Source of the DNA: a virus
IMG/VR virus record: IMGVR_UViG_3300028794_000198
Span: 26,049 to 90,048 of that record
Strand: one strand, 5' to 3'
DNA: 64,000 bases
Positions 22,382 to 37,078 of this stretch are shown here, piece by piece. A program made the translations under genes and the position numbers. The notes beneath the pieces were generated by a model. It was not told the DNA's origin. It ran no database searches and saw only the letters and a program-made list of their open reading frames with translations. The stretch's first letter is position 1, and every line of letters starts with the position of its first letter.

Positions 22382-22573
22382 CTAGCCCATCATCCGGCGC
22401 CACACCGAGACGGTCTCCTCGTCGCCGCTGATGTTGAATTCGACCTTCCCGTTGTCTTGGATCTTGGTCGATACGCTGAGCCCGCCCTCCCGGAGTGCGT
22501 CGCGGTTCTCCTTGAGGGTGGTGCCGCGCAGGTCTTCGGTCGTGCGGGTGAAGCTGAACCGGCTCTTCGCCAT
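22382..22573 (-). CDS. Small hypothetical protein
   Basis: AGGGAG RBS; first gene behind a strong promoter. Confidence 0.7.
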   Translation of the reverse strand: MAKSRFSFTRTTEDLRGTTLKENRDALREGGLSVSTKIQDNGKVEFNISGDEETVSVWRRMMG

Positions 22574-22616
22574 GTGAACTCCCTGTTGAGGTGTCGTTCC
22601 GTCTTGCGATACCTCA

Positions 22617-22686
22617 AATATAGTGGGTACCCATCAATACGTCAAGTGGGTACCCACTAGATCTTTTCATGGGTACCCACTACACT
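22617..22686. promoter_or_regulatory. Divergent promoters with three TGGGTACCCA operators
   Basis: Minus strand TTGACG-17-TATATT; plus strand -10 TACACT 6 nt before ATG; palindromes at 22624, 22647 and 22670. Confidence 0.85.
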
Positions 22687-22692
22687 CGACAC

Positions 22693-22968
22693 ATGGACAC
22701 TCCACCCAAGCCGTTTCAGCAGCTCACCGCCCTCGCCGGCTCCGAGAGCATCGAGCGCGCCCAGGCCCTGACCGAGGCGTTGAAGGCCATCCCTGACCTT
22801 CAACACTGGCTGCGGGAGCAGCGCCAGCACGTCGTCCGCACCCTCCATGAGCGGGACGGAATCAGCTACACCGACATGGCGCCCGCCCTCGGGGTCAAGC
22901 CTGAGCGCGTGTCAGGCATTGCCCGTGGCCACAGCCGTTCATCAAGGAAGGGCAGCGCCGAGGGCTGA
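22693..22968 (+). CDS. Small HTH transcriptional regulator (probably leaderless)
   Basis: GISYTDMAPALGVKPERVSGI HTH. Confidence 0.8.
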   Translation: MDTPPKPFQQLTALAGSESIERAQALTEALKAIPDLQHWLREQRQHVVRTLHERDGISYTDMAPALGVKPERVSGIARGHSRSSRKGSAEG

Positions 22969-23058
22969 CCGGCGCCCGGTGGATGGCCCGCGCCGCACCC
23001 GACACGCAAGCCCCGACCGGAGACGATCCCGGTCGGGGCTTGCGAGTGCCCGGGCAGG

Positions 23059-23598
23059 TCACCGCTGGTTGATGTTCTTGACCCAGACGGCCCGGGTGTT
23101 GGTGGTGCGGTGCTCGTGATATTCGGGCCCGTTGTGGTGGTGCACGTCGGGCACGACAGCCCGCTTGGCCTTGCCGATGGCACCCCCGACGGCGGTCACG
23201 ACCATGGCGAAACCGGCGAACGGGAGGGCAACGGTCAGAACACCGGCCAGGGTCACGGTGGACAGGCTGTGGATAACCGACGACAGGCCCTTGCAGGCGA
23301 GCCAGACCGCACAGCCGAGGCCGATGGATCCGACACCGACTCCGATGGAGCCGACGGCGATTCCGAGCGCCCAGGCGGGCACGATCCGGCTGTCGGGCTG
23401 CGGGACGGGCGGGGTGGTGCCAACGCGAGGCCCGTCCTCGAATGACGGGATGCTCTCGTCGTCGACGCGGACGGCGGTGGGCTTGTCGGTGCCGATCTCG
23501 TCGAGGGCTGCGAAGAGGCGGCGGATGTTGTCGCGGTCGGCTTGCGTGGCCTGCCCGGCCGCGGCGGCGGTGGGCGTCGGCTCGGGCAGGTCGAGCAT
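23059..23598 (-). CDS. Membrane protein, Spd-like (plasmid spread)
   Basis: Two TM helices, HHH.GP tail; downstream of the tra gene. Confidence 0.55.
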   Translation of the reverse strand: MLDLPEPTPTAAAAGQATQADRDNIRRLFAALDEIGTDKPTAVRVDDESIPSFEDGPRVGTTPPVPQPDSRIVPAWALGIAVGSIGVGVGSIGLGCAVWLACKGLSSVIHSLSTVTLAGVLTVALPFAGFAMVVTAVGGAIGKAKRAVVPDVHHHNGPEYHEHRTTNTRAVWVKNINQR

Positions 23599-23624
23599 GG
23601 GGTGAGGTCTCCTTCGGGTAGTGG

Positions 23625-24272
23625 TTACGGGGTGGCAGCCTTGGCGGTCGCCTTGGCCGGCTTCTTGCGGGTGCTGGTCTTGGGTGCGGGTGTGGGCGGC
23701 GACGGGGCCATGGCGGCTGCGGCGGTCTGCTGCGCGTACCACTTGCCGCCGACGCTCGCCCCGCCGTGCACCTGCTTCTCGTGGGCCCGCAAGGCGCTGG
23801 TGGCCTTCTTGGCGTCCTGGAAGCGGGGCTTCACCTTCTTGCCGCAGGGGCAGCTCCAGCCGATCAGGCCGGAGCCTTTGTCGGCACCGAACCGGCTCGC
23901 CTTGTAGACGGCCCACTTGCTGGCCGTGGCCTTGGTGCCCTTCGCGGGGCAGGGCTTGGATCCGGTGAGGGTTCCGTCCTTGGCCCGGGTGGCGATCTGT
24001 CCGTTGCCGTGGCAGGTGGTGCAGTTCTCGTGGGTGATGCGGCGGATGGCCGCGGCCTTGCGGGAGGTGGTCACGTCGCGGTGGGTGTCGACCATGGGGG
24101 CGATGACCCGCAGCACCAGCCAGGTGCCGAGGCGGGCGTGGAGCGGGCCGCTGCGCGGGATTTTGACCCGCCGGGCGGGATGCGTGCGCCGGACGGCGGT
24201 CGCGGTGGTGCGGCGGCGCGCCGGGGCCTTGCGGCGGGCGGTCGGCCGCCTTGCGGAACGCTTCGCTGCCAT
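23625..24272 (-). CDS. Basic Zn-finger protein (CxxCxGxG and C2H2-like)
   Basis: CTTCHGNG...KPCP; WSCPCG...H...H. Confidence 0.7.
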   Translation of the reverse strand: MAAKRSARRPTARRKAPARRRTTATAVRRTHPARRVKIPRSGPLHARLGTWLVLRVIAPMVDTHRDVTTSRKAAAIRRITHENCTTCHGNGQIATRAKDGTLTGSKPCPAKGTKATASKWAVYKASRFGADKGSGLIGWSCPCGKKVKPRFQDAKKATSALRAHEKQVHGGASVGGKWYAQQTAAAAMAPSPPTPAPKTSTRKKPAKATAKAATP

Positions 24273-24313
24273 GATCGGGACTCCTTCTCAAGAACTTCAC
24301 ATATGTGGATCAA

Positions 24314-24456
24314 TAGGGTGTCTATGGGCCGTCTTTGGCCCGACTAAGGCCCGTCTATGGCCCGGCTACCTGCGGTTCCTCTTGATCGCCCAGTCGGGCC
24401 ATAGACGGGGTGAAGACGGGGGTTAGGCGGCCCGTAGACGGGCCATAGTCGGGCCC
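24314..24456. repeat. clt-like locus: 5 + 6 inverted tandem 11-bp repeats (consensus TAGACGGGCCA)
   Basis: Arms at 24314-24368 and 24391-24456 with a 22-bp spacer; right arm overlaps the 3' end of the traB-like gene. Confidence 0.8.
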
Positions 24457-26522
24457 AACAGGCCTGCGGCGGCCTGCTCAACAGACTCTCGGGACCAGCC
24501 GCGGACCTGCGCCCGGCCATCCCACTCCTGACGGATCGCCGTCACCGACGGGGCATGCTTCCGAAGCAGCTGAGAGAGGCCGTTGGCGTCCATCTGCACG
24601 CCCGCCTCGCCGAGCGCGGGGAGCAGTTCCTCGGTCGTCGGCAGGAACGTCTTCGCGCCGAACGCCCGCAGCAGAACGGCGACCGTCGCCGCATCCTCCA
24701 CACCGCCCTGCTCGTCGAGAGCGACGAGGCGGTCGGCCAGGGACGCTTCGCCCGCCGCACCATCGCGGCGGATCACGTGCAGCAGGTTGGCGGCGGCGAG
24801 GCTGGCGTGGTCGAACCAGGGACGTCCGGCGTCCTTGCGGTCCTTGACGGCCTGCCGAATCTGGTCACGCTCGAACCGGTTCCACCGCCACAGCACGGGC
24901 CGGTCGAAGCCAGGGCCAGCGATGTAGAACTTGCCGGCGTCGTAGACCCGCTCGTCGTCGACGGCCGGACGCAGCCGGTCGGGACGGTATCCCGCCGCGG
25001 AGGCCCCCTTACCCAGGACAAGGGGGATGTCCTCGCTGCGCGCGGCGAGCATCACCCGGTAGGTGACGGCGCTGGCGATGGCGTCACCGAGGGAGTCTTG
25101 TGTGGCTTCCTGGGCGGCGAAGAGGAGGTAGACGCCGGTCTCGCGGCCGATGCGGAGGATCTCGATGGCGAGTTCCTTGGCTTCCTTGGGTAGGAAGATG
25201 AACTCGTCGATCAGGCCGAAGATGGCGGGCTCTTCGGGGGTGGGCTCCCACAGGTCGCCCATCTCCTTGGCCGACTTGACCTGATTGCGGGCCGAGGCGA
25301 TGTCGCGCAGCCAGCGCAGCTTCTCCGTGCACTCCTTCGGTCCACGGATCGGCGGCAGCGCCATGACCTCGGAGAACTCGCGGATTCCGTCCTTGACCGG
25401 GTCCATCTCGATGGCGATGGCGTCCCGGCATGCGGTGATGACCTCGGCGAGGCAGCGCAGCGCCCCCTTCGTCTTCGCCGACCCGGACGAACCGATGACC
25501 ATCATGAACATTCCGCGCAGGCGCATCTCCAGCAAGGTGCCGTCCATGCAGCGGCCGTACACCACCGCATCCTTCACCGACAGGCTGTTCGGCGAGTGCA
25601 CCGACGGCCGGGGCATGTCGGCGAACGGATCCGACTGCACGAGACGCAGCGTGAGGTGGGAGTTGTCCTCCGGGTCCGGCTCGCACAGGGTCTGCCCCTT
25701 GCCGATGCCGAAGTGGGAGTCCAGCTTGCTCATTACGGCGTTGACCTGCTCCGGCGCCGCCCCCTTGAGGACGACGTCGATCTCCCAGCCCCAGCCACGG
25801 TAGCCGAGCACGCGCACCGCGCGGGTGTCGATGCCCTCCCAGGCGAGCGCCCGGGTGACGCACTGCTCGACCTTGTCCGGCGACTGCGCAACCGCGAGCG
25901 GGAACGGCTCGTCGCTGGTCGGGTCGTCCTGCTCGGCGACGATCTGCTCGGGCGCAAGGCCGGTGTTGTTGAGCCGGTAGCGCCCGTACCAGGTGACGGC
26001 GGAGGCCACGGACAGGGCGAGCACGCCTGGCGTGATCCACCACGAGTCCGCGGCGGTCATGCCCGCTTCGGCGACGAGCGCCCACCAGCCGGCGAGGTTG
26101 AGTGCGGCCAGCGCGCCGGCGCCCCAGCCGAGGAACTTCCAGCGCCGGTGGCGGATCTCGGTGTTGCGGCGCCAGTCGGTCGACGAGGTGACGCCGCCGA
26201 TCGCCTCCTGATAGTCGTGGGAGCGCAGGTACCGCCAGCCGAGGAAGGAGACAGCGCCGGCGCCGGCGCCGAACCAGCGAGCCGCCGTCCAACTGCCGCG
26301 CACCGACAGGCCGACAGCGCGCCCGGTGGTCTTGGCGACGACCATGGCCGCGCTGCCGGTCTTCCGCAGTACCGGGTAGGCCGGCTCGTAGGGCAGGAGG
26401 ACGCCAGGCGCGATGTCGTCGTCGAGTTCCCCGGACAGGTCGTCGGGGACTTCGAGCTCGCCCGGGATCACCTTCGTCAGGTCCCAGCCGGGCGGGAGTT
26501 CCGGGTTCATCTCGAGGCTCAT
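24423..26522 (-). CDS. FtsK/SpoIIIE-family TraB-like conjugative DNA translocase
   Basis: N-terminal TMs, GSSGSAKT Walker A, GLIDEF Walker B, GRETGV..FAAQ, C-terminal wHTH ending RGW. Confidence 0.85.
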   Translation of the reverse strand: MSLEMNPELPPGWDLTKVIPGELEVPDDLSGELDDDIAPGVLLPYEPAYPVLRKTGSAAMVVAKTTGRAVGLSVRGSWTAARWFGAGAGAVSFLGWRYLRSHDYQEAIGGVTSSTDWRRNTEIRHRRWKFLGWGAGALAALNLAGWWALVAEAGMTAADSWWITPGVLALSVASAVTWYGRYRLNNTGLAPEQIVAEQDDPTSDEPFPLAVAQSPDKVEQCVTRALAWEGIDTRAVRVLGYRGWGWEIDVVLKGAAPEQVNAVMSKLDSHFGIGKGQTLCEPDPEDNSHLTLRLVQSDPFADMPRPSVHSPNSLSVKDAVVYGRCMDGTLLEMRLRGMFMMVIGSSGSAKTKGALRCLAEVITACRDAIAIEMDPVKDGIREFSEVMALPPIRGPKECTEKLRWLRDIASARNQVKSAKEMGDLWEPTPEEPAIFGLIDEFIFLPKEAKELAIEILRIGRETGVYLLFAAQEATQDSLGDAIASAVTYRVMLAARSEDIPLVLGKGASAAGYRPDRLRPAVDDERVYDAGKFYIAGPGFDRPVLWRWNRFERDQIRQAVKDRKDAGRPWFDHASLAAANLLHVIRRDGAAGEASLADRLVALDEQGGVEDAATVAVLLRAFGAKTFLPTTEELLPALGEAGVQMDANGLSQLLRKHAPSVTAIRQEWDGRAQVRGWSRESVEQAAAGLLGPTMARLRAA

Positions 26523-27820
26523 GACGGGTCCTTCTGGGTGCTCTGCTCAAGGCGTGCCTGAGTGCGGGCGATAGGGCTGGGCGGCTGGCTGTCGCCGGCC
26601 CGTCGGACGGGCGGAGTGCCGCCGTTGTTGCGGCGCCCGTCGGGGGCGTTCGGGTCACGCTTGGAGCGGGGACCCTTTTGGGATTCGATCAGCGAGAACT
26701 CGCCGAAAACGGGCGCTTCAGTGACGGTCCGCATGTGGGCCTGTGCGGCGCGCGACTGAGCTTCGATTTCGGGACGGATTCCGACCGTCTTGCAGCCGGT
26801 AACGAGGAACCAGGACTCGGCCCAGATCTGGTCCGTGACGAACCTGGAACCGCGCGCGGAACGGATCGCGTCAGCGACCTGCCACACGTCGCCGTGCGTC
26901 GCCTCGCGGTCGGCGTCCTTGCGGGTCTGCTCCTCCTCGGCGGCCTTCTCGCGGGCCACCCTCTCGGCTGCCGCTTTCGTATCGGCAGCCTGCTTCTCGG
27001 CGCGCGCCTTCTCGCGGGCGGCGTCCGCCTGGGCCTTGGCGCGCTCGGCAGCCCGGCGCTCACGGCCGGATGGGATCCCGTCGACCTTCTGCGCGATGCC
27101 GTGCTCGTAGGTCATCAGCACGATCGGTCCACCGAGGGAAGCGATCGCGCCGATGATGCCGGCGTTGAGGCCGATCGCCGGGTCGGTCATGCCGCCGTAC
27201 AGGTTGACGGCTGCGGCGATCACGGCGCCAACCATGATGCCGACGCGGTAGGGGCGAACGTCGCGCCGGTGGGCAACCGCCCATGCGGCGCCGAACGCGA
27301 GGACGAGGGCGAAGCCTTCGAGCAGTGCCGGGGCAGCGATGAGGAACTTGCGGTGCGGGTCCCAGAAGTGCATGAACTGCACCGGCGCTGCGATCACCAA
27401 GCCGACGGCATAGATGCCGCGGGCGCCCCACTTCCACCAGCGCTCCGAACGCTTCTGCTCCTTGGCGATCCGCACCTCCAGAGCTTCCGCCTCAGCCTCG
27501 GCCGCGTCTGCCTTCTCCCGATCCGCTTCGGCCTTGGCGGCTTCGGCGGCCTTCTTGGCGAGGTAGACGTCGTGGTCGGCCTGCTTCCTCTCCTGGGCCA
27601 GGCGGGCTCGCTCGTTGGTGAGCCGTTCTTTTTCGGCTTGTTCGGCGGCGAGGATCTCGGCAGCCTTCGCCTCGCCTTCAGCCTTGATGCGTAGCGCGTC
27701 GGCTTCAGCAGCAGCCCGGGTGCGGATCGCCTCCGCCTCGGCCAGCGCGCGCGGGTCGAACCGCGGCTCGGGCGAGGCCAGCGGCGAGCCGTTGACCTTC
27801 TTCTCGACGGAGGTTGTCAC
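26519..27820 (-). CDS. SpdB2/DUF2637-like spread protein
   Basis: Coiled coil, four TMs (AAPALLEG...AAAVNL), coiled coil; coupled to the traB-like gene. Confidence 0.7.
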   Translation of the reverse strand: MTTSVEKKVNGSPLASPEPRFDPRALAEAEAIRTRAAAEADALRIKAEGEAKAAEILAAEQAEKERLTNERARLAQERKQADHDVYLAKKAAEAAKAEADREKADAAEAEAEALEVRIAKEQKRSERWWKWGARGIYAVGLVIAAPVQFMHFWDPHRKFLIAAPALLEGFALVLAFGAAWAVAHRRDVRPYRVGIMVGAVIAAAVNLYGGMTDPAIGLNAGIIGAIASLGGPIVLMTYEHGIAQKVDGIPSGRERRAAERAKAQADAAREKARAEKQAADTKAAAERVAREKAAEEEQTRKDADREATHGDVWQVADAIRSARGSRFVTDQIWAESWFLVTGCKTVGIRPEIEAQSRAAQAHMRTVTEAPVFGEFSLIESQKGPRSKRDPNAPDGRRNNGGTPPVRRAGDSQPPSPIARTQARLEQSTQKDPS

Positions 27821-27838
27821 GATCGGGTCCTTTCGGAT

Positions 27839-28042
27839 TCAGCCGCGCGGGGCGGCGCGGTGGGCGATGAACGTTGCGGTGGCGTTGGCCGCGCTGTAGG
27901 CGGTCGCGTAGAACACGGCGACAGCTGCGGCGACCGTGACGACGGTGGGGGCGCCGAGCGTGCTGACGGCGGTCAAGGTGACGGAGGCGACCAGGGCGGA
28001 TGCGACGCCGATCGCAACCAGGACGAGACGGTTCAGGCACAT
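27839..28042 (-). CDS. Small two-TM protein
   Basis: MCLNRLVLVAIG...; hydrophobic. Confidence 0.6.
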   Translation of the reverse strand: MCLNRLVLVAIGVASALVASVTLTAVSTLGAPTVVTVAAAVAVFYATAYSAANATATFIAHRAAPRG

Positions 28043-28043
28043 G

Positions 28044-28241
28044 TCAGCCCCTCCCCCGCCGGGTCGTCTTGCGCCAGCCGAAGCCGCCGGGGAGGTTCCA
28101 CGACGTGGTACGACGGCCGGTCGAACTGCGGGTGTAGTGCGGCGTGTTCTTGCCGCCCAACGTGATCGACCAGCTGTGCAGGCCGATGTTGACGCGGACA
28201 CCGGGCAGGACCCGGAAGGACTTGCGGAAGGTGATCGGCAT
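28044..28241 (-). CDS. DUF4236-like protein
   Basis: FRKSFRVLPGVRVNIG..S.S.TLG...NLPG. Confidence 0.8.
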   Translation of the reverse strand: MPITFRKSFRVLPGVRVNIGLHSWSITLGGKNTPHYTRSSTGRRTTSWNLPGGFGWRKTTRRGRG

Positions 28242-28519
28242 CAGACCGTCTCCGATCCGAGCGGCACCGGCGTGAAGCCGACCTCGCCGTCCACCTTGTC
28301 CGGGAAGTCAGGGCCCGCGACCTGGTGCGATCGCATCCGGTAAGGGCGCTGCAGCCGCCACACCATCGGCGTGTAGTCGAAGGCCACGGTGTAACCGTCG
28401 GCGGTCGGCCAGTCCAGTTCGGAGGCGGCGCGGACTGCGTCGGTCGGGTCGGCGGCGCGAACCCACTCGGTGTAGACGCCGGACGGGCGGGTCGGCCAGG
28501 TCACGCTGTACTTCTTCAT
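28241..28519 (-). CDS. Hypothetical protein
   Basis: GAGGAG RBS. Confidence 0.65.
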   Translation of the reverse strand: MKKYSVTWPTRPSGVYTEWVRAADPTDAVRAASELDWPTADGYTVAFDYTPMVWRLQRPYRMRSHQVAGPDFPDKVDGEVGFTPVPLGSETV

Positions 28520-28554
28520 GCGGTGCTCCTCTCAGGGGTGGGGTCGGGGGCCGC

Positions 28555-28728
28555 TCAGCCGCCGATTTCCTTCAGGTAGGCCTTGGCCTCGCTCTTCGAG
28601 ACCTCCAGGCAGGTGGCGACGATCGTTGCGTCGGCGTCGGGGTTGACCTCCCGGATCGCCTCGATGCGGCGGATGTGCTCGTCGTGCCGGACCGGGTTCT
28701 GCGGCACGTTGCGGTTGAACAGGCCCAT
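28555..28728 (-). CDS. Small HTH-like protein (not in ORF track)
   Basis: MGLFNRN...IVATCLEVSKSEAKAYL; GAGGA RBS. Confidence 0.6.
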   Translation of the reverse strand: MGLFNRNVPQNPVRHDEHIRRIEAIREVNPDADATIVATCLEVSKSEAKAYLKEIGG

Positions 28729-28740
28729 ATCGGGTTCCTC

Positions 28741-29037
28741 TCAGGCGGGCGCGCCGGTGCGCGCCTTGTGGAATTCGCGGATGAACTCGTCGGTGAGCCC
28801 GGCGCCGAGTGCGGCCCCGACCGGGCCGATCCCGGTCACGTCAGCGGCCCACAGCTCCAGCCACGCCATACGGGTGGCGGCGTAGTTGATGACCGGGCGC
28901 ATGCAGCGGATCGCGAACACGACCGCCCCGAGCGCGCACATGACGGTCAGGGCGAGGGCCCGCAGCGCCCACCGGCCCGCGAACCGGGCAGCGAGATGCA
29001 GCCGACCGGGCTTCGCGGTGATCAGGTACGGGCGCAT
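28741..29037 (-). CDS. Hypothetical membrane protein
   Basis: ATG at 29037 with GAGGAG RBS. Confidence 0.6.
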   Translation of the reverse strand: MRPYLITAKPGRLHLAARFAGRWALRALALTVMCALGAVVFAIRCMRPVINYAATRMAWLELWAADVTGIGPVGAALGAGLTDEFIREFHKARTGAPA

Positions 29038-29054
29038 GCGGACTCCTCTCGGGG

Positions 29055-29567
29055 TCAGGCGATGGTGTGGATGGGTGCGCGCCGGGCCACACGAACGGGT
29101 CCGGCGGCGGGGTTGAGGTGGGCGGCGAGGCGCTCCAGTTCGCAGGCCTGGGCTTCGCCGTCGTCCCACTGCGCGTCGTACTGCTCCAGCTCGGCGGCCG
29201 GGAGCCGGGACAAGGCTTCTTCGGTGCGGAACTTTTCGACCCGCCGCACGCCCGGTCGCAGCATCTGCGCGGCGTGCACGAGTTCGTGAATGACGGTCTT
29301 GTCGACCTCGGACGCGTCGTAGAGGTGGGCTTGGGCGTTGACGACGGCGAGGACCCGGTCGAGGCCGTACAAGGTGCAGCCGTACAGGCCGTCGTCGTCA
29401 CCGGCGAGGAGGCGGGTGAAGTAGGTGCCGGTGACGAGGAGTTCCACCCCGAGCAGGCGCACACCCATCTCGCTCTCGACGAGCGCGGCGGCCTGGTCGG
29501 CAATGGCGCACACCCGGTCCAGGACTGGGCGTCGGGCCGGGCCGATGGCGTAGGCGTTGACCTGCAC
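29055..29567 (-). CDS. Putative zinc metallopeptidase
   Basis: IHELVHAAQ (HExxH) and downstream EAQA. Confidence 0.7.
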   Translation of the reverse strand: MQVNAYAIGPARRPVLDRVCAIADQAAALVESEMGVRLLGVELLVTGTYFTRLLAGDDDGLYGCTLYGLDRVLAVVNAQAHLYDASEVDKTVIHELVHAAQMLRPGVRRVEKFRTEEALSRLPAAELEQYDAQWDDGEAQACELERLAAHLNPAAGPVRVARRAPIHTIA

Positions 29568-29596
29568 GGGGGGCTCCTCTCGGGGTTGGGGGTCGG

Positions 29597-29782
29597 TCAG
29601 TTGCCGGGCTTGAGCTCGTCGGCGGTGTAGCCGCGGTAGCCGAGGACGGCCTCCTTGACGCGCCCGTCGATGCCCTTGACGGCGAGTTCACCGCCGGACT
29701 TGGAGCCGTCGTCGACGACCGTGCCGGTCTTGCCCTTCGCGTCGCCGGTGGTGACGGTGACCTTGTCGCCCTTGCGGAACAT
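29597..29782 (-). CDS. KOW-motif protein
   Basis: FRKGDKVTVTTGDAKGKTGTV. Confidence 0.7.
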   Translation of the reverse strand: MFRKGDKVTVTTGDAKGKTGTVVDDGSKSGGELAVKGIDGRVKEAVLGYRGYTADELKPGN

Positions 29783-29940
29783 GCGGGACTCCTTCGGTTC
29801 GGTGAATGGATGTGCTGGTGCCGGTCGTGCTGGGCGCCGCACCGTGGGGGCGATGCGGTCCCCGGCAGGACCAGGGGGTGGAGCCGTGGCGGCGAGGCCG
29901 CGGGGGAACGAATCCCACCGCCACGGCGATCAGGGGCCGC

Positions 29941-30090
29941 TCACCAGTACTTGGCGTCGGCGGGGTCGATCTTCGGCAGCTTCCGGGCCGTCTTGCGCAG
30001 GGCGTCCGCTTCACGCTTGGCGCGGGCGACTGCGGCGGGGTCGGGCTTCCGTGGCGGGGGCGCGTCGTCGCGCTTGCGGCCGAACATCAC
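29941..30090 (-). CDS. Small basic protein (not in ORF track)
   Basis: GTGA overlap; MFGRKRDD...KYW. Confidence 0.55.
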   Translation of the reverse strand: MMFGRKRDDAPPPRKPDPAAVARAKREADALRKTARKLPKIDPADAKYW

Positions 30091-30305
30091 AGGTAGCTCC
30101 CCGGGTCGGCCGCGACGAGCACCTCGCGCGACAGGTCACCCTGGGCCGGGCCGACCACACTGTCCGCCTCCAGCAGATCCAGCAGCCGGCAGGCCGTCTG
30201 GTAGCCGACTCGGAGACGCCGCTGCAGGCTCGTCACCGACGCGGACTGGAAGTAGATGACGTGGGTGCGGGCCTCGGCCAGCAGCTCCGGTGTCACGGCG
30301 GCCAT
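30087..30305 (-). CDS. Stand-alone FtsK gamma (winged-helix) domain protein
   Basis: ASVTSLQRRLRVGY..A.RLLDLLE...VVGPA.G...REVL. Confidence 0.88.
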   Translation of the reverse strand: MAAVTPELLAEARTHVIYFQSASVTSLQRRLRVGYQTACRLLDLLEADSVVGPAQGDLSREVLVAADPGSYL

Positions 30306-30514
30306 CAGGCAGCTGCCGGGTAGTTGAAGCCGTCGAGCTCGGCAAGCAGGTCGGCGTCGGCGGCGAGCCGGATCTCCGCCCGACGGGCCTTGCTGGCGGC
30401 GGCGTACTCGGTGAACACGTCGGAGATCGACAGGACCGTCGGGACGAGCACCAGGGCGCGGTCGGCGCCGCCCGTCAACGTGGCGTGATCGGCGGAGAGC
30501 AGGAAGGGGGACAT
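30305..30514 (-). CDS. Hypothetical protein
   Basis: ATG at 30514; coupled to the next gene. Confidence 0.55.
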   Translation of the reverse strand: MSPFLLSADHATLTGGADRALVLVPTVLSISDVFTEYAAASKARRAEIRLAADADLLAELDGFNYPAAA

Positions 30515-30561
30515 GGCGGGGGACCTTTCAGGTCGCAGAGAACGTGGAAGGGGGGCGGGGG

Positions 30562-30822
30562 TCAGGCGGTGCGGCGGCTGGGCAGCCACAGGCGGCGCTT
30601 GGGCTCGGGCTCGACGGGCGCGACCGCCTTCGGCTGCTGCAAGGCGTCGGCGATCCGGGCGAGCTGGATGTTGGTGGCCTGCTGCTCGGAGACCAGCGCG
30701 AGCAGGGCGTACAGGACGGCCTGCTGCTCGCCTTCCGTGCTGGTGATGCGGAGGCCATGACCGTCCCTGCCGTCGAGGCGGCGCCGCACGGTGGTCAGGT
30801 GCTGCTCGGTGGTTCCGGACAT
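30562..30822 (-). CDS. Hypothetical protein
   Basis: GGGAG RBS. Confidence 0.6.
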   Translation of the reverse strand: MSGTTEQHLTTVRRRLDGRDGHGLRITSTEGEQQAVLYALLALVSEQQATNIQLARIADALQQPKAVAPVEPEPKRRLWLPSRRTA

Positions 30823-30982
30823 GAGGGGACTCCCATTGGTGGGGCGAAGGTGGATGCCACGGCGGCGGGACGGGGGGATTGTCGAACCGCCGCCGTGGCG
30901 GTCTAGGGGTTAGGCCTTCGGCCGGGTCTCGGACTCCCGGTTGGCCTTGGCGACCTTCCGGGAGAGTTCGGCGCGCTCTGAG

Positions 30983-31162
30983 TCAGTCACCGGACTCACC
31001 GTCCGGCAGGAACTTGCCGCCGTCGCGGTGCGCATAGCTGACGTAGACGCCTTTTACGAGTGGGGCGCGGACGATGGCCATCAAGTCATCAGGCCAATAG
31101 CCGAGGAACACCTCGTCCACGCTGGCCGCCAACTCCTCCTCCGGCGACGGGTCGGCAGTCAC
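30983..31162 (-). CDS. Small hypothetical protein
   Basis: GTGA overlap; MTADPSPEEE... Confidence 0.5.
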   Translation of the reverse strand: MTADPSPEEELAASVDEVFLGYWPDDLMAIVRAPLVKGVYVSYAHRDGGKFLPDGESGD

Positions 31163-31353
31163 GGCGCCACCACCGTCAACTGCGGGGTGCCAACCTTGTA
31201 GGCGACGAAGCCGGTGGCGAGCCGCTGCCCGGTCGCAGCGTCGGCGACCGCGATCCGCAGCAGCGGGCCGCCGTCGAGAGGCTCGGCAATCGCGCCGATC
31301 ACCTCGTCGGCCTTCGCCTGCGCCGCCGTCAGGCGTGCCAGGTCGGCGGTCAC
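31159..31353 (-). CDS. Small hypothetical protein
   Basis: GTGA overlap. Confidence 0.55.
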   Translation of the reverse strand: MTADLARLTAAQAKADEVIGAIAEPLDGGPLLRIAVADAATGQRLATGFVAYKVGTPQLTVVAP

Positions 31354-31523
31354 GACTCGGCCTCGACGTCCGGGACGACGACCAGGAAGCGGTCGGTACG
31401 GATGTCCTGCACGACGGTCGCCGGGACGCCCTGGTCGCGGAACTGCTTCGCCTGCTCCTCCGCGGGCCAGGAGCCGCGCGGGTGGGAGGCCGGCGAGGTG
31501 GCGAGAACCTTGCGGCCGGTCAC
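31350..31523 (-). CDS. Small hypothetical protein
   Basis: GTGA overlaps at both ends. Confidence 0.55.
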   Translation of the reverse strand: MTGRKVLATSPASHPRGSWPAEEQAKQFRDQGVPATVVQDIRTDRFLVVVPDVEAES

Positions 31524-31723
31524 GACGCACCGTCCTCGGTGAGGATGAACGTCGCGGACTTGAGGTCACCGAACGCGCTGGCCCGCTCGCGGCCGAGCTG
31601 CGTGTGCTCAGCCGCCGTAGTGGCGGACTCGGTTCGATCGGCGATGTCGGTGATGCGACCGCGGGCATCGGCCTGAAGCGTGGCCGCGGCGGCGATGTCC
31701 TTCTTGCTGAAGCAGCCCATCAC
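31520..31723 (-). CDS. Small hypothetical protein
   Basis: MGCFSKKD...; coupled. Confidence 0.55.
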   Translation of the reverse strand: MMGCFSKKDIAAAATLQADARGRITDIADRTESATTAAEHTQLGRERASAFGDLKSATFILTEDGAS

Positions 31724-32085
31724 GCACCTGCCGTCTGCGGGTGCGGGCCGCGGGGACGCTGCGGGAGGCGCGGCTCGTTCGCTTTGGCGTGGTCGTCGGA
31801 GGCGACGAGGTGCAGCAGACCGGCGTCGGCGAGGGTAGCGCGGGAGCCGGCCATCAGCTCCTCGGCGAACTCCCACGAACGGACATCCAGCGCGGGCAGA
31901 CCGTTGCCGGTTGCAGCCTTCGCCGCCAGCTCGGCAGCGTGCAGGGCGGCCGACTCGTAGCGGGTCACCGCATCGACAACCGGCTTCGGGAAGGCGAGAC
32001 GCAACTCCAGGCGGGCCGGAGTGGGGACGGCCGGAGTGGGGAGCGGTGCGGTGGGGGTGTGCGGGGAAGTGCTGGTGGCGGCCAT
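31720..32085 (-). CDS. Hypothetical protein, first gene of the tra operon
   Basis: AAGGA RBS, ATG at 32085. Confidence 0.6.
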   Translation of the reverse strand: MAATSTSPHTPTAPLPTPAVPTPARLELRLAFPKPVVDAVTRYESAALHAAELAAKAATGNGLPALDVRSWEFAEELMAGSRATLADAGLLHLVASDDHAKANEPRLPQRPRGPHPQTAGA

Positions 32086-32167
32086 GAGCGGTGTTCCTTC
32101 CTCTGGTCGTAAGTCGCACAAAACGGTGTGGCCGCCATTTCGTCGGCCTTCCGGCGATGCGATACTG

Positions 32168-32196
32168 ACGGTAGACCGGTGGTCCACCGGTGTCAA
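32168..32196 (-). promoter_or_regulatory. tra-operon promoter with a palindromic operator
   Basis: TTGACA-17-TACCGT; spacer holds ACCGGTGG-T-CCACCGGT. Confidence 0.8.
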
Positions 32197-32263
32197 CCAG
32201 TTGACCGGAGGGAGAACCGTCCCTATGGTCAAGAGACATCCAGCGAAAGGAGAGGAAGGAGCG

Positions 32264-32983
32264 ATGCTTGGATACGCCGAAATCGCCGCACACTTCAGGA
32301 GGCAGATCACCGACGGGGAGCTCAATCCCGGAGATGCGATGCCGTCCTATACGGAGGCCTCCGACCAGTTCGGGGTGAACCGAACGACGGTGGTCCGCGC
32401 CTACGACATCCTCAAATCCGAAGGACTGGTCGCCAGTCGACCCGGAAAGGGAACGACCGTCGCCGCCCGCCCCAGCGTCATCATCAGCGGCGTCGACCGG
32501 CTTGACCGACTGAGCCGGACTGGTCGACGTTATGGGCCCGGAGAGGACTCGACAGGCCACCGTGTGATGTGGCGATCGGCGTATGACGTCGACGTGTGCC
32601 GCGCTCTTGAGATCGAACCGGGCGACGAGGTCGTGATCCGCATCCGCACGTTCCGACAGGACGGACGGGCGACAAGTGTCGGCATCTCGGTCTACCTGCC
32701 GCGAACTGTCGCCGAGGTCCAAGAGCTCGCCGAGAGCGAACGGATGGGGCGCTTCTTCGGTGAGATCTACACCGAACGCACCGGACGCGAAGTCACCAAG
32801 GGGCAGCGCACAGCCCATGCTCGGCAAGCCTCGCAGGACGAGATCGATGCCCTGCAACTCAACGTGCCCGCCCACATGGCGGTGTCCGTCCTCGTCACGA
32901 ACGTGACCTTCCACGACGAGGAGGGCCCACTCGCCTACTGGGAAGACGTCTACGCGCCGGGGGAGAAAATCCCGACCGCGTAG
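32264..32983 (+). CDS. GntR/HutC (UTRA) regulator, KorSA/TraR-like
   Basis: Y..IA..F...I..G.L.PGD.MPS...FGVNRTTV.RAY..L..EGLV.SRPGKGT; divergent from the tra operon. Confidence 0.9.
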   Translation: MLGYAEIAAHFRRQITDGELNPGDAMPSYTEASDQFGVNRTTVVRAYDILKSEGLVASRPGKGTTVAARPSVIISGVDRLDRLSRTGRRYGPGEDSTGHRVMWRSAYDVDVCRALEIEPGDEVVIRIRTFRQDGRATSVGISVYLPRTVAEVQELAESERMGRFFGEIYTERTGREVTKGQRTAHARQASQDEIDALQLNVPAHMAVSVLVTNVTFHDEEGPLAYWEDVYAPGEKIPTA

Positions 32984-33081
32984 AACGCGAAAGGCCGAGC
33001 GGTTGCACCCGCCCGGCCGTTTCGACCAGCGAGTTGCTGCTCGCTGATCTTCAACCGTCACTCGCCAGAGAGAAGGTCTCG

Positions 33082-33558
33082 ATGACCACTGTACTGCCCG
33101 CCCAGGCCTCTGCCCCCGCGACGTCTGTCACTCCCCCGCCCCGGACGTGGTCGTTCGTCGACCGCCGCACCGGTGAGGCCGTCGAGTATCGATGCATGGA
33201 CAACTGCACCCTGGATCATGGCCGCGAGGTGGGGCGCGCCATCTTCCGTGAGGACGTGTGGTGCTGGACGTGGGCCGAGTCCATGACTCTGCCAGTCAAC
33301 GAGAACGGAACGCCGGAGGAGATGGCCGTCCTCTCCACCGTCATCAAGGTCGAGCCGTTCTCCCGAACGATCTCCCAGCGCCTGCCGTATGCGGTCGTCG
33401 AGCTGGTCGAGGACCAGTTCATCGAGAACCTCGACCCCGACGGCTACGAGACGCTCATCCGCACACTGTCCGACCGCCTCGACCAGATGCGCGCCACGCA
33501 CCGCCGGCTCGTTGGGATCCGCGCCGCATACATGGCCCGGCAGGTGCGCGCCGCCTAG
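33082..33558 (+). CDS. DUF6907-like protein
   Basis: C...C..DH...DVWC...PF...LDP pattern. Confidence 0.55.
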   Translation: MTTVLPAQASAPATSVTPPPRTWSFVDRRTGEAVEYRCMDNCTLDHGREVGRAIFREDVWCWTWAESMTLPVNENGTPEEMAVLSTVIKVEPFSRTISQRLPYAVVELVEDQFIENLDPDGYETLIRTLSDRLDQMRATHRRLVGIRAAYMARQVRAA

Positions 33559-33650
33559 CGCCTTCAGTCCTCCCGCAACCAACCCGCAGGCGGCCCGGCG
33601 AGTTCCCATCGTCGGGCCCCGCGTCATCCGCAAACCTGGAGCATAGGTAC

Positions 33651-34352
33651 ATGCTGATTCACCGCAGGCCAGACCCCGCCGAAGCTGAGGCCGCCCAACG
33701 AGCTCTTCTGTTGGATGGGCGTCTGAGCCTTCTGACCGTCGGCGTTCTGATGAAGATTCTCAATCGCGCCCCCGAGTGGCAGATCAACGCCAAAACATTC
33801 CATGCAATGTGCGAGGAGGGGCGTGGCATCGGCGCCGAATCAGCACGCAGCATTCGGATGGCGTTCCGCGAGCTCGAAACGATCGGCTACATGCGCCGCA
33901 CCAAGGGCAAGAAGTCCAACGGCGACTTCTACACGTGGCTTGAGGTGTCCGATGTTCCGCACCAGTTCGCACCCTTCAGCCTGGCGGAACAACCGTCGGA
34001 GCCGGTCGCAGGCTACGAGCACGGAACGATGCCGACCGAAGGCTTCGTCTACATAATCAGCCCGGCAGAAAGTCGCGTCGTGAAAATCGGCACGACTGTG
34101 GATGTGTCGACTCGACTGCGGAGCATGCAGACGTCCAACCCTCAACTGCTCGTCGCCCGATGGTCGTGCCTAGGGAACGTCGAGCTGGAAAGCTTCCTTC
34201 ATCGCCGATTCGACCCCATCCGCGTCAAGGGTGAGTGGTTCGATTTCGGCGACGGGGATCCCATCGCCGAAGTTTCCGCAGCGGCGGAGTACTTCTACGA
34301 GTTGCCGTTTGGCTCCCTGAGTGAACCGGCAGTCGCGACCGAGCCGATCTGA
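33651..34352 (+). CDS. Initiator-like wHTH fused to a GIY-YIG (T5orf172/MUG113) domain
   Basis: DGRLS...GVL...W...RELETIGY; FVYII...VKIGTT...RL..MQTSNP...E..LH..F...RV.GEWF. Confidence 0.8.
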   Translation: MLIHRRPDPAEAEAAQRALLLDGRLSLLTVGVLMKILNRAPEWQINAKTFHAMCEEGRGIGAESARSIRMAFRELETIGYMRRTKGKKSNGDFYTWLEVSDVPHQFAPFSLAEQPSEPVAGYEHGTMPTEGFVYIISPAESRVVKIGTTVDVSTRLRSMQTSNPQLLVARWSCLGNVELESFLHRRFDPIRVKGEWFDFGDGDPIAEVSAAAEYFYELPFGSLSEPAVATEPI

Positions 34353-34412
34353 CGCTCAACACTTCGGCTCCCGCCTCCATCGTTAATACGCGGGGCCGCA
34401 GGCCCGGCCTTA

Positions 34413-34724
34413 GTGCGTGCGTGCGCGAGGCGGAAGCGGCAGGCGGGCAAGCCTGTCGATCATCGACGACGACCACATTTCAACGAGAGGTTCACTGTGG
34501 GACTGACGAAGGAGCAGATCGGCAGGCTCGAAGCCGACACCAGGATCGACGGGTCGGACCGCCGGCTGCTGATGTCGCTGTGCGACTACGACCCGGGGGA
34601 CGGCTCGGACGACAGTGGATGGGGCGGACTCCGGGTGATGTTCCGAAAGCTGGAGGCCGCCGGATACCTGACGATCGACGGACTCCACGTTCACGTCCGA
34701 GTACTTGAAACGGAGGCGCGATGA
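34413..34724 (+). CDS. Hypothetical protein (start uncertain)
   Basis: RKLEAAGYL wHTH-like; coupled to the next gene. Confidence 0.5.
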   Translation: MRACARRKRQAGKPVDHRRRPHFNERFTVGLTKEQIGRLEADTRIDGSDRRLLMSLCDYDPGDGSDDSGWGGLRVMFRKLEAAGYLTIDGLHVHVRVLETEAR

Positions 34725-35026
34725 GCAACATCCCGTACACCCACTGGTCGTACTTCCCAGACGAGGCCACCGCGCGCCGCTGCGCCCAGGATCTCGCCGA
34801 CTACATAACCCGCGTCCGTGAGCCGCTGCCGGACAGCACCGACTGGCTGCTGCTGGCGGGCCGGGACGTCAGCATCGACCACCTCGTAGCGCGCCACCGG
34901 GAGGTCGCCGCGATCGTCGAGCGGCACGGCGGCCGGTACGACGGCGGGGAGGCGGCCTACCTCGGAACGGGCCGGCCGGTCGCGGACCCGATGCTGATCG
35001 AGGACGACGACGGGGCCACTACGTGA
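34721..35026 (+). CDS. RraB-like (RNase E inhibitor) domain protein
   Basis: HWSYFPDEA.A..CA..L...W.L...ERHGGRYDG. Confidence 0.65.
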   Translation: MSNIPYTHWSYFPDEATARRCAQDLADYITRVREPLPDSTDWLLLAGRDVSIDHLVARHREVAAIVERHGGRYDGGEAAYLGTGRPVADPMLIEDDDGATT

Positions 35027-35406
35027 TCGCCGCCGCGGTCATCACCCACGCGGCCCGCGTCCTCCTCATCCGCCGCACAACCCCGGAGGCCGCCCTTCTG
35101 TGGTCGTTCCCTGCGGGCAAGCTGCACCCCGACGAGTCCCCTGTCGAGGCCGCTGTCCGCGAGGCCCTGGAAGAGGCGGGCGTGACGGTGGCCCCGCTCC
35201 AACTGCTGGGTGAGCGCACGCATCCGGTGACGGGCCTACGCGTCGTCTACATCGCCTGCGAGCTGGTCGGTGGCACGGCGCATGCGGCGTCGCCTCGCGA
35301 GGTGGCAGAAGTCCGCTGGGCGCGCCTCAGTGAGCTGCCAGGGCTGATCCCTGGCGGCATCTACGCACCGGTGCAGGCCTTCCTCGAAGGAGTCCTACCG
35401 CCGTAG
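35023..35406 (+). CDS. Nudix hydrolase (pSAM2 Pif-like context)
   Basis: Nudix box GKLHPDESPVEAAVREALEEAGV; HPVTG. Confidence 0.9.
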   Translation: MIAAAVITHAARVLLIRRTTPEAALLWSFPAGKLHPDESPVEAAVREALEEAGVTVAPLQLLGERTHPVTGLRVVYIACELVGGTAHAASPREVAEVRWARLSELPGLIPGGIYAPVQAFLEGVLPP

Positions 35407-35499
35407 CTCTCCGCCTCGCCCGCACCATCAGCCCTTCCGTCCCTCACCCATCCACCCACCCCTAAACTGACCCGGCCGCCGCCGAAAGGACCCTCCCGT

Positions 35500-35889
35500 A
35501 TGCGCCCCGCCGACTACCGCGACTACCTCGTCGACCTGCTCAAGAACAGCTCTGACGTGCAGCGAGTGCAGGTCATCGACTCCGGCAAGCATCCTTACGC
35601 CCTGGCCGCGACGGTGGCGGGCAAGGAGCGCCGCTGGCAGGTGATCGGCCAGCTGGCGGACGGCGCAAAGCACGCGACTCCGACGGCGCCGGTGCACTCA
35701 GGCCCGCCCGCGTACACAGCGGCGCCCGCCACTGGCGCGCCGGATGCGTGGCTGGCCGGTGTGATCGGTGCTGCGGAGCCTGCGGACACGGAGCGGCTTG
35801 AGGTGTGGTCGACACGCAAGAAGACGGGCGAGCCCGGGGTGACCGTGCATTTTCACAACGGCGAGCGCGCCTTCGTGCGCCTCATCTGA
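35500..35889 (+). CDS. Hypothetical protein
   Basis: AAAGGA RBS. Confidence 0.7.
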   Translation: MRPADYRDYLVDLLKNSSDVQRVQVIDSGKHPYALAATVAGKERRWQVIGQLADGAKHATPTAPVHSGPPAYTAAPATGAPDAWLAGVIGAAEPADTERLEVWSTRKKTGEPGVTVHFHNGERAFVRLI

Positions 35890-35966
35890 GCCCTTCCTGC
35901 GACTGGCCGGCTGCCGCATCGTGGGTCGCGCAGGAAGCACCTCCGCCCGTTGAAGGAGATCTGCTC

Positions 35967-36116
35967 ATGCGCAACCGTGTCGACCCCACCCAGTGCTCGG
36001 CCTCCTGTCCCGTCTGCGGCGCCTACGGCAGCGCAGAGCCCGGCCAGCCGACAGCTCAGCATCAGGCTCAGGGCAGCCGCGAGATGTGTCCTGGCAGCGG
36101 CCAGCCGGCCGTCTGA
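35967..36116 (+). CDS. Small Zn-ribbon protein
   Basis: AAGGAG RBS; CPVCG...H...CPGSG. Confidence 0.6.
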   Translation: MRNRVDPTQCSASCPVCGAYGSAEPGQPTAQHQAQGSREMCPGSGQPAV

Positions 36117-36127
36117 GCGCGCACGCG

Positions 36128-36160
36128 AAAAAGCCCCGCACCATCAGGTGCGGGGCTTCG
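36128..36160. terminator. Terminator between convergent operons
   Basis: AAGCCCCGCACC-atca-GGTGCGGGGCTT with a T-run on the minus strand. Confidence 0.8.
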
Positions 36161-36178
36161 CCGTGTCCCGGTTGCCCC

Positions 36179-36457
36179 TCAGTCCTCTTCCGCCGCGTGC
36201 GCCAGTTCGTTGGCGAGCCGCTTCAGCGCCCGGTCCGCATTGGCGGGCACTTCGCGCATGTCTTCGTCGCCGTCTGCAGTGGCTGCTTCGAGGAGGGCGC
36301 GGATCGGTGCCCGGAGTTCGAGGACGGCTTCCCGGAGTTCCAGGAGGATCTCCTGCGCGCTGTCGGCGTCCGCGGGCAGGTCGGTGACGTCGAGTTTGGC
36401 GGCGGCGGCGCGGATCTGGGCGGCGAGTTCCTTGCTGAGACGGACGTTGCGGGGCAT
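36179..36457 (-). CDS. Hypothetical protein
   Basis: Helical ORF before the terminator. Confidence 0.6.
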   Translation of the reverse strand: MPRNVRLSKELAAQIRAAAAKLDVTDLPADADSAQEILLELREAVLELRAPIRALLEAATADGDEDMREVPANADRALKRLANELAHAAEED

Positions 36458-36472
36458 CAGGGCTTCTGTCGG

Positions 36473-36622
36473 TCAGAGGATGTGCAGGAGGGTCCACAGC
36501 GCGGCCTTGAGTACCCAGTTGACGAGCGTGAGCATCCCGAGCGCGGCAACGATCAGGGCGGCGCCTCGCGGGACGCGGACCTCTTCGTTCAGCCAGTGCG
36601 GGTCGCGGTCGGTCACGCTCAC
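36473..36622 (-). CDS. Small membrane protein
   Basis: GTGA overlap; one TM. Confidence 0.5.
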   Translation of the reverse strand: MSVTDRDPHWLNEEVRVPRGAALIVAALGMLTLVNWVLKAALWTLLHIL

Positions 36623-37077
36623 CGCCGCCGCCGCGCCGGCCCATGCGACGGCTGCCAGGCGGGCCGGTCGCGTGGTCGGGGCGGCTTGCCGCAGTCGTCG
36701 CACCCGACGGCCTCGGGTAGGTGCCGGAAGGCTTCTTTGATCTGCCTGAACTGGTCGGCGACGCGTTGGAGCAGCGGCTGGAACGCGGCACGGAGACTCT
36801 CCTGCATCTCGGCCAGGACCGCTTGCGCTTCGATGGCCGCGAGATCCGCGTGCGGGCCAGGTCGTCCGAGTTCGGCGGCGATGACGGCTGCCTGGGCTTC
36901 GGCCGGGGTGAGGTCATGCCGTTCGATGAGCCGGCCGATGAGGACGTTGGCCCCGTTCATCCGTGGGCGCACAGCCGGTGGGGGCGGCAGGTCGGGCGCC
37001 CACCGCATGGCGCCGCCGCTGACGTCCCAGTCGTCGAGGGCGGTGTCGATCTGGCCGAGGACGTCGTCGGTGCGCAT
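36619..37077 (-). CDS. Hypothetical protein
   Basis: AAGGAG RBS. Confidence 0.65.
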   Translation of the reverse strand: MRTDDVLGQIDTALDDWDVSGGAMRWAPDLPPPPAVRPRMNGANVLIGRLIERHDLTPAEAQAAVIAAELGRPGPHADLAAIEAQAVLAEMQESLRAAFQPLLQRVADQFRQIKEAFRHLPEAVGCDDCGKPPRPRDRPAWQPSHGPARRRR

Positions 37078-37078
37078 C

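Follow-up and report, generated by a model that had tools for sequence, protein, structure and literature searches.

A probable plasmid-type Tra/Spd module with a putative clt array in a temperate, integrating phage of a Streptomyces-type host

The viral DNA analysed here, a window of 64,000 nucleotides that represents bases 26049-90048 of the 90,048-bp IMG/VR record IMGVR_UViG_3300028794_000198, carries a gene block that is very probably a plasmid-type Tra/Spd module. We also favour, with less assurance, the reading that, independently of virions, this module carries phage DNA from one hypha or compartment to another. The evidence comprises gene content, homology, fold, synteny with plasmid cassettes, conservation, and the covariation between a repeat array and the C-terminal domain of a TraB-like protein. 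The transfer unit occupies positions 23002-32983 and consists of one minus-strand transcription unit plus a divergent regulator arm. Positions refer to the window unless stated otherwise. The features on which the argument turns are the following (aa, amino acids):

35023-35406, plus strand: Nudix hydrolase (Pfam)
32264-32983, plus strand: GntR (HutC-type) regulator with UTRA domain, TraR/KorA-like, 239 aa (Pfam GntR 4e-18, UTRA 1.8e-8)
32086-32263: divergent control region of ~179 bp with palindromes and a promoter-like site (read from the sequence and by promoter scan)
26519-27820, minus strand: SpdB2/DUF2637-type membrane protein, 433 aa (family profile, hydropathy)
24423-26522, minus strand: TraB-like FtsK-type translocase of double-stranded DNA (dsDNA), 699 aa (PHROG 12531 and fold)
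24314-24458: clt-like array of eleven 11-bp units in two inverted arms, straddling the traB stop codon
24300-24320: conserved box, in traB sense CACCCTATTGATCCACATATG; it follows the array immediately and lies upstream of the zinc-ribbon gene
23625-24272, minus strand: basic zinc-ribbon protein, 215 aa (C84, C87, C108, C141, C143, H164 and H169 invariant in the family alignment)
23059-23598, minus strand: membrane protein, 179 aa, two hydrophobic segments, last gene of the operon (translation, hydropathy)

An initial annotation had placed a TraB-like FtsK translocase, an SpdB2/DUF2637-like gene, other membrane genes, clt-like repeats, a divergent GntR regulator and a Nudix gene in this region, and all of these were recovered. 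The regulator, however, probably starts at 32264 and not at 32021. Genes were chosen by third-position GC content (GC3) and then checked by translation and with Pfam, and three further gene calls changed: the start of the operon moves to 32085, with a gain of two small genes; a stand-alone FtsK-gamma gene had been overlooked at 30087-30305; and the 413-aa open reading frame (ORF) 23059-24300 was rejected as a single gene, as it is really two genes in different frames. The view that the block is a coherent plasmid-type module and not a lone FtsK gene is upheld by core genes that are homologous and syntenic to those of plasmid pFP1, by a pJV1-like regulator and by the covarying array.

Core genes of the putative transfer block

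The operon runs from 32085 to 23059 on the minus strand and comprises ~18 genes, several of them with overlapping stop and start codons. It is bounded by the divergent promoter region at one end and by a hairpin at the other, and its last four genes encode the 433-aa membrane protein, the 699-aa TraB-like protein, the zinc-ribbon protein and the small membrane protein.

The TraB-like protein matches PHROG 12531 ('FtsK/SpoIIIE-like') at 2e-73. Its AlphaFold model, built from 44 homologues, has a predicted local distance difference test score (pLDDT) of 73.8, and the best Protein Data Bank (PDB) matches found with Foldseek are FtsK motor domains (E 4e-16 to 1e-14; for 6t8b/2ius, E 4e-16 to 1e-15 and target-normalised template modelling score (TM) 0.60-0.70). 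The motor contains the Walker A sequence GSSGSAKT and the Walker B sequence LIDEF, and K350 of the former as well as D439/E440 of the latter are invariant in the 44 homologues. The model places N-terminal helices at residues 74-185 and a C-terminal winged helix at ~609-677. When the last 110 residues were modelled alone (pLDDT 88, predicted TM 0.80), the topology was H-S-H-H-S-S. Matches of this domain are mostly to winged-helix proteins (PadR, MarR, Rex, Cdt1/ORC; Z 5-6.4, best E 0.08; Foldseek, VIA) and establish the fold class of the model only, namely a winged helix. Identity amounts to 35.6% with the TraB of pFP1 and to no more than 36% with any plasmid TraB; judged by sequence, the phage protein is a distant relative of plasmid TraB and not an equivalog.

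The gene directly upstream, whose stop overlaps the traB start, encodes a protein with the architecture of pSVH1 SpdB2 (PMC4447253), i.e. a coiled coil and four membrane helices in ~410-430 aa, just upstream of traB. Its N-terminus (residues 1-125) is rich in Glu, Ala and Lys and was judged coiled-coil-like by eye; four hydrophobic segments follow at 135-236 according to hydropathy, and then a C-terminal domain. The family profile aligns to the pFP1 protein that RefSeq annotates as DUF2637 with an hhalign probability of 98.8% (E 1.2e-16), and pairwise BLASTP gives E 3e-8. Four of the 29 family members match PF10935 at E <=0.01 (best 2.3e-4), whereas the protein of the window itself had no Pfam match, and none to PF10935 even at E 10. 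A tblastn search of the phage and plasmid collections likewise returned nothing, and its homology emerged only by pairwise or profile comparison. The ESM Atlas also gave leads for this protein.

Downstream of traB, the zinc-ribbon protein found no family match in Pfam, the PDB or the Atlas, but its family aligns to the ORF that follows traB in pFP1 (hhalign probability 95.9%, E 6.5e-9). All three core genes, for TraB, the DUF2637 protein and the downstream zinc-ribbon ORF, thus have homologues in pFP1 (NC_006912.1). The plasmid also shares their setting: a GntR gene diverges from small ORFs, which are followed by the DUF2637 gene, traB and a 258-aa ORF in the same order and orientation, and a phased inverted repeat array that includes a CCGCAGGT element lies directly after traB. 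There are also differences. pFP1 is a 39-kb circular plasmid without virion genes, its repeat unit is of the CTCTAC type, the C-terminal domain of its TraB is different, and its regulator is only 31% identical to that of the phage.

Occurrence of the module in relatives

Relatives were sought in a sample of 401 Streptomyces species genomes, and 42 related viral contigs from IMG/VR, mostly of 50-93 kb, were compared. A close TraB homologue (47-65% identity) was present in 7 of the 401 genomes. In all three Streptomyces genomes that were examined over 120 kb, the trio of SpdB2-like, traB and zinc-ribbon genes lies in a prophage, between the helicase and the terminase/tail genes. One of these prophages is syntenic with the phage studied here, with virion proteins that are 50-86% identical. 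The survey of related prophages that had been proposed as a check found the trio at the same position, in three Streptomyces prophages and in the IMG/VR contigs (36-38 of 42).

Among the viral loci, the SpdB2-like gene stands directly upstream of traB in 36 and the zinc-ribbon gene directly downstream in 38. The other components are less constant. DUF4236 genes occur in half of the loci (21/42), on either side of the trio, and homologues of the 179-aa membrane protein in 14. Fifteen loci have a Nudix homologue on the strand opposite to traB, 12 have a GntR gene and seven a terminase gene within 10 kb downstream, and stand-alone FtsK-gamma homologues were seen in only four. Since the trio is kept while GntR and Nudix genes are patchy, the core of the module comprises the trio and the array, and the regulator arm is variable. 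As judged from these sequences, the block is a resident and not a recent insertion, and the trio has long belonged, in mosaic form, to a large group of temperate Streptomyces phages.

A clt-like repeat array and its unit classes

Read in traB sense, the array consists of six 11-bp units (consensus ~GGCCCGTCTAT), a 24-bp spacer and five inverted units; the first three units of the array encode the C-terminal tail of TraB. A cognate clt for TraB consists of short repeats that adjoin or overlap the traB 3' end, and by its sequence the array is a putative clt. The clt of plasmid pWTY27 likewise spans the 3' end of its tra gene, according to a comparison with the literature. Across the whole window, matches to the unit with up to two mismatches are not enriched (26 against 18.6 expected), and 7 of the 26 fall into one 130-bp stretch; the array is therefore a local site and not a dispersed signal.

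Of the six related loci from Streptomyces genomes in which the end of traB was read, five have the same architecture at the stop codon, as does the large majority of the 42 viral loci. The repeat units fall into five classes in the latter, CCGTCT, CCGTCC, TGCTCR, ACCCGG and GTGACG, and each class is tied to a distinct variant of the TraB C-terminal domain. At equal motor-domain identity (0.50-0.65), the identity of the C-terminal domains is 0.44 within a unit class but 0.21 between classes. This covariation is the pattern predicted for a cognate TraB-clt pair, and we regard it as supportive, not as proof. TraB-clt specificity is established for pJV1, pSVH1 and pIJ101 (PMC9513070), and TraB binds 8-bp clt repeats specifically (PMC4447253).

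Two mosaic IMG/VR contigs point the same way. In L058 the SpdB2-like gene is 100% identical and the TraB N-terminus 94-98%, whereas motor and C-terminal domain are only 32-58% identical and the array is different. L057 differs mainly in the TraB C-terminal domain (14% identity). Both mosaics have their breakpoints within traB: the N-terminal membrane part goes along with the SpdB2-like gene (94-100% identity), and the motor or C-terminal domain together with the array is replaced relative to window 24423-27820. These breakpoints suggest a modular exchange of specificity.

The box CACCCTATTGATCCACATATG that adjoins the array is nearly identical in six of seven sequences compared despite their differing array units; one relative, whose units are TGCTCA, lacks it. 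For the zinc-ribbon gene the box may serve as promoter or operator. As to the plasmid systems, the recognition word of pSVH1 is reportedly GACCCGGA; a literature search for it gave unrelated papers only.

Regulator and control region

The regulator combines a GntR winged helix with a UTRA domain and is divergent from the transfer operon, as are regulators of the TraR/KorA type. Its identity with GntR regulators from small Streptomyces plasmids amounts to 60-63%. The pJV1 counterpart (61.3%) stands divergent from traA/traB, while identity drops to 39% for pZL12.80 and to the 31% already noted for pFP1. The intergenic control region contains the palindrome ACCGGTGGTCCACCGGT (32175-32191) and, adjoining it, GTCAACCAGTTGAC (32192-32205), both of which overlap the promoter-like TTGACC-17-TATGGT. 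These palindromes are a candidate operator.

Comparison with other known systems

The nearest precedent for a tailed phage genome with transfer genes is pZL12, or phage ZL12 (GQ919031). There, too, a GntR gene is divergent from small ORFs, one of them Nudix-like, and a membrane protein gene and an FtsK-like gene lie just upstream of the late genes. The GntR and Nudix (pZL12.76c) proteins are 39% and 36% identical to their counterparts here. In other respects the two differ: pZL12 is maintained as a plasmid with ParA and ParB, whereas the phage described here is classed as a provirus and has a tyrosine integrase and no ParA/ParB match; the FtsK-like protein of pZL12 is not similar to the TraB-like protein by BLAST, and the virion genes are essentially unrelated. 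Of the combination that characterises pZL12, namely ParA/ParB and RepA with virion genes and a tra locus, ParA/ParB is lacking here; no search for RepA was made. Zhong et al. (2010, J Bacteriol 192:3747; cited in PMC3583192 and PMC4487206) reportedly demonstrated the conjugal transfer locus of pZL12 experimentally. PMC3583192 states that pZL12 transfer needs one major tra gene together with two genes next to it. Outside the block, the methyltransferase ORF at 50469-51977 (minus strand) is 41% identical to pZL12.28c, and a spurious antisense ORF over 49420-50619 aligns (51%) to the pZL12.27c region, which implies a second homologous gene there. The methyltransferase region, GntR and Nudix are the strongest protein matches between the phage and pZL12.

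In the tra-spd regions of small conjugative Streptomyces plasmids of the pSVH1/pJV1/pSN22 type (traR, spdB2, traB, clt), the transfer genes face a divergent GntR repressor, SpdB2 has a coiled coil and four membrane helices, and the TraB winged helix reads short repeats adjacent to traB (PMC4447253); the predicted logic of the block is the same. In these plasmids SpdB2 forms pores and TraR is the GntR regulator, and SpdB2 homologues had been remarked upon in phages phiC31 and VWB (PMC4447253). The repeats described for such plasmids, however, are 8-bp direct repeats, in contrast to the 11-bp period in two inverted arms seen here; moreover, the TraB of the phage is distant, and a rolling-circle Rep was not found.

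Like the phage, integrative conjugative elements of actinomycetes (AICEs), for instance pSAM2 with its integrase, Rep, TraSA, Spd, KorSA and Pif, are maintained by a tyrosine integrase and have GntR and Nudix genes as well as an FtsK-like transfer protein (PMC2440964). pSAM2 is controlled by KorSA and the Nudix protein Pif (PMC2440964). Unlike in AICEs, integrase and replication genes here are those of a 90-kb tailed phage, 20-50 kb away from the module, and there is a full set of virion genes. The block itself has none of the integrase, att sites and Rep gene that an AICE would bring along. As the initial annotation had stated, no integrase, relaxase or RepSA-type gene is recognisable in it: Pfam scans of its ORFs matched no integrase, relaxase or Rep family. 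Convincing att-like direct repeats flanking the block were not found either, only imperfect matches typical of GC-rich coding DNA. The combination named beforehand as fatal, own att sites together with absence from relatives, does not apply, because flanking repeats are lacking and relatives carry the block at the same position. The term phage-AICE hybrid therefore needs qualification: a plasmid-type module does reside in a phage, but not as a recent fusion, since the trio is long-standing in Streptomyces temperate phages.

FtsK-like genes also occur in Streptomyces phages of ~130 kb (NootNoot, Paradiddles and others), which we take to be lytic members of cluster BE. Their products belong to the same PHROG and are 31-34% identical over the motor domain. 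In contrast to the block, the annotation shows no SpdB2-like gene beside the NootNoot gene (L052, 73794-75611), no obvious repeat array follows the gene, and tblastn with the SpdB2-like protein gave no match in the phage collection. The NootNoot gene is surrounded by tRNA genes and close to a Ro-like gene. FtsK-like genes are listed in recent phage papers without tested function, and our searches of the literature turned up no account of an integrating prophage that carries a TraB-clt-SpdB2 cassette. What sets this phage apart from the known cases, by sequence, is that it is an integrating prophage and not a plasmid-phage, with a cassette of the pFP1 type and a regulator of the pJV1 type. The idea itself is not new, given the experimental precedent of pZL12 and the phage SpdB2 homologues already remarked upon (PMC4447253).

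The phage genome and the remaining genes of the block

IMG/VR classifies the record as a provirus, and CheckV estimates its completeness at 100%. The DNA has ~70% G+C, nearly all genes of the window lie on its minus strand, and no tRNA genes were found in it. The closest protein relatives all come from Streptomyces. From its sequence, we consider the genome to be that of a temperate, integrating phage of the siphophage type with a Streptomyces-type host. Its main landmarks are:

1793-2842 (whole-record coordinates): tyrosine integrase, the phage's own and the sole integrase found
440-2212: large terminase
44531-46267: DnaB-type helicase
62852-63496, plus strand: cI-like helix-turn-helix (HTH) gene

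The window also encodes DNA methyltransferases and RecT with a RecE-like exonuclease. The record also has genes for a Ro60/TROVE protein, an amidase, a 1568-aa ORF of tape-measure size, a tail tube protein and an SPP1-type portal. No ParB_N or ParA (AAA_31) match was obtained across the 90-kb record. With the sole integrase being the phage's own and ParA/ParB not found, the suggestion that the module uses the integrase and replicon of the phage is the only reading available. The transfer operon lies on the lytic strand between the replication and the late genes; between the block and the terminase gene lie ~20 kb that are taken up by small, fibre and glycan genes. When the block was searched by megablast in the phage and plasmid collections, no match was obtained.

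The other features of the block and of the adjoining regulator strand are:

28044-32085, minus strand: upstream part of the operon, ~14 small, partly overlapping genes (GC3 gene picking, translations)
31720-32085, minus strand: orf121
31520-31720, minus strand: orf66
31350-31523, minus strand: orf57
30087-30305, minus strand: stand-alone FtsK-gamma, 72 aa, winged-helix (PF09397, 62.5 bits, 3e-17)
29055-29567, minus strand: 170-aa protein with an HExxH motif (HELVH), no family match
28044-28241, minus strand: DUF4236 protein (Pfam 1.2e-14)
upstream part of the operon, minus strand: weak KOW-like gene, 81 aa
23002-23047: hairpin with a 19-bp stem (inverted repeat, 95% complementary), between the end of the operon and the convergent plus-strand gene 22669-22968
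33034-33558, plus strand: DUF6907 gene (Pfam)
33648-34352, plus strand: T5orf172/MUG113 (GIY-YIG-like) protein (Pfam)
between the T5orf172/MUG113 and RraB-like genes, plus strand: orf103
34721-35026, plus strand: RraB-like protein (Pfam)
end of the regulator-strand run 33034-35889, plus strand: orf129, its last gene

The upstream part of the operon further contains orf59, orf86, orf94, orf49, a second orf57 and orf92, and most of its small genes are not kept in relatives. The FtsK-gamma gene lies inside the operon and is distinct from the winged helix of TraB itself; its product could act on host FtsK/Xer functions or as an adaptor. The hairpin at 23002-23047 is likely a terminator. By tblastn, T5orf172/MUG113 homologues were found in four of the 42 related loci and RraB-like ones in none. 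The long ORFs 31520-33061 (minus strand), 33258-34352 from its first start, and 35993-37204 (plus strand) were discarded as off-frame or antisense artefacts.

Beyond the hairpin, a 38-bp palindrome with a perfect centre and AGTGGGTACCCA-type units is found at 22614-22689 (region 22382-22968), together with a promoter-like TTGACG-17-TATATT. It lies between a minus-strand gene run and a weakly HTH-like 99-aa plus-strand gene and resembles a control region for the following transcription unit, which may be a late one.

Discussion

Expression of the module, its binding to DNA and any transfer by it are what we infer from the features described above. In the scenario that we favour, the GntR repressor (TraR/KorA-like) would hold the divergent operon off. 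Once repression is relieved, the SpdB2-like four-helix protein and the TraB-like ATPase would come together in the membrane, either where hyphae touch or at a septal cross-wall. [quoted passage not shown] There the DNA could integrate by means of the phage tyrosine integrase or start a lytic cycle. The Nudix gene may act like Pif of pSAM2.

Several observations weigh against this scenario. The TraB-like protein reaches only 42.2 bits (3.7e-11) against the NCBIfam model plasmid_TraB (NF041214), the cut-off of which is 800, and 8.6 bits against PF01580 (FtsK_SpoIIIE), with a cut-off of 24. Its N-terminal helices are weakly hydrophobic, with Kyte-Doolittle maxima of 1.14-1.29 at residues 133-151 and 160-180. 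GntR and Nudix genes are each detectable in only 12-15 of the 42 relatives. The covariation falls short of proof because the array adjoins and partly encodes the C-terminal domain, so that physical linkage can contribute to it. Finally, the ~130-kb phages, taken to be lytic, carry FtsK-like genes as well, in NootNoot with no obvious array behind the gene, so that a phage-specific role other than conjugation is conceivable.

The main alternative is that the machinery serves the lytic or induced cycle only and pushes replicating DNA across septal cross-walls along the hypha; mating between separate mycelia would not occur, and new lysogens would not be formed by that route. The place of the operon on the lytic strand, between replication and late genes, speaks for this alternative, and the ~130-kb Streptomyces phages, presumably lytic, also keep an FtsK-like gene. 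Nevertheless, we consider it rather unlikely. A plasmid-type repressor of its own (61% to pJV1) and a Nudix gene are features of regulated mating in plasmids and AICEs (PMC2440964), and the NootNoot copy has neither an annotated SpdB2-like neighbour nor a visible array.

A clearly less probable explanation sees in the FtsK-like gene a host-takeover or accessory function, such as interference with septation or sporulation, segregation, dimer resolution or the delivery of prophage DNA into spores, with the repeats as a loading or regulatory site that plays no part in intercellular transfer. It leaves unexplained both the conserved pairing with SpdB2/DUF2637-type and zinc-ribbon proteins in the order of a conjugative plasmid and the presence of a plasmid-type TraR. 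Nor is the repeat unit dispersed over the genome as a segregation signal would be, the excess being confined to one 130-bp spot. In its favour are the stand-alone FtsK-gamma gene in the same operon and the Streptomyces phage literature, which treats FtsK-like genes, without tests, as developmental or replication-linked. That the block is an independent AICE or plasmid fragment, recently inserted and now a passenger or a decaying remnant, is hardly credible: the GntR regulator is far closer to those of small plasmids than TraB is to plasmid TraB, which indicates exchange with plasmids, but no integrase, Rep or att-like flanking repeats were found for the block, the trio occupies the same position in syntenic and more distant prophages and in 36-38 of the 42 viral contigs, the reading frames are uninterrupted, and the catalytic residues do not vary.

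Returning to transfer without virions, a broader idea is conceivable, although we hold it only tentatively: a widespread group of integrating tailed phages of Streptomyces may routinely use TraB, clt and SpdB2 as a second, capsid-free route of infection, with interchangeable classes of winged helix and clt, and an integrated clt could act as an origin of the Hfr (high frequency of recombination) type that mobilises host chromosomal DNA between mycelia. The value of the finding is tempered by the precedent of pZL12 and by the earlier remarks on SpdB2 homologues in phages. The covarying classes of TraB C-terminal domain and repeat nevertheless offer natural cognate pairs for studying how TraB reads clt. 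If the cassette works, it would give a temperate phage two routes of spread, virions for distant hosts and the pumping of dsDNA for neighbouring hyphae or compartments. Resistance based on receptors would thereby be bypassed, the boundary between prophages and AICEs would be blurred, and the unexplained FtsK-like genes that are often annotated in Streptomyces phages would gain a function.

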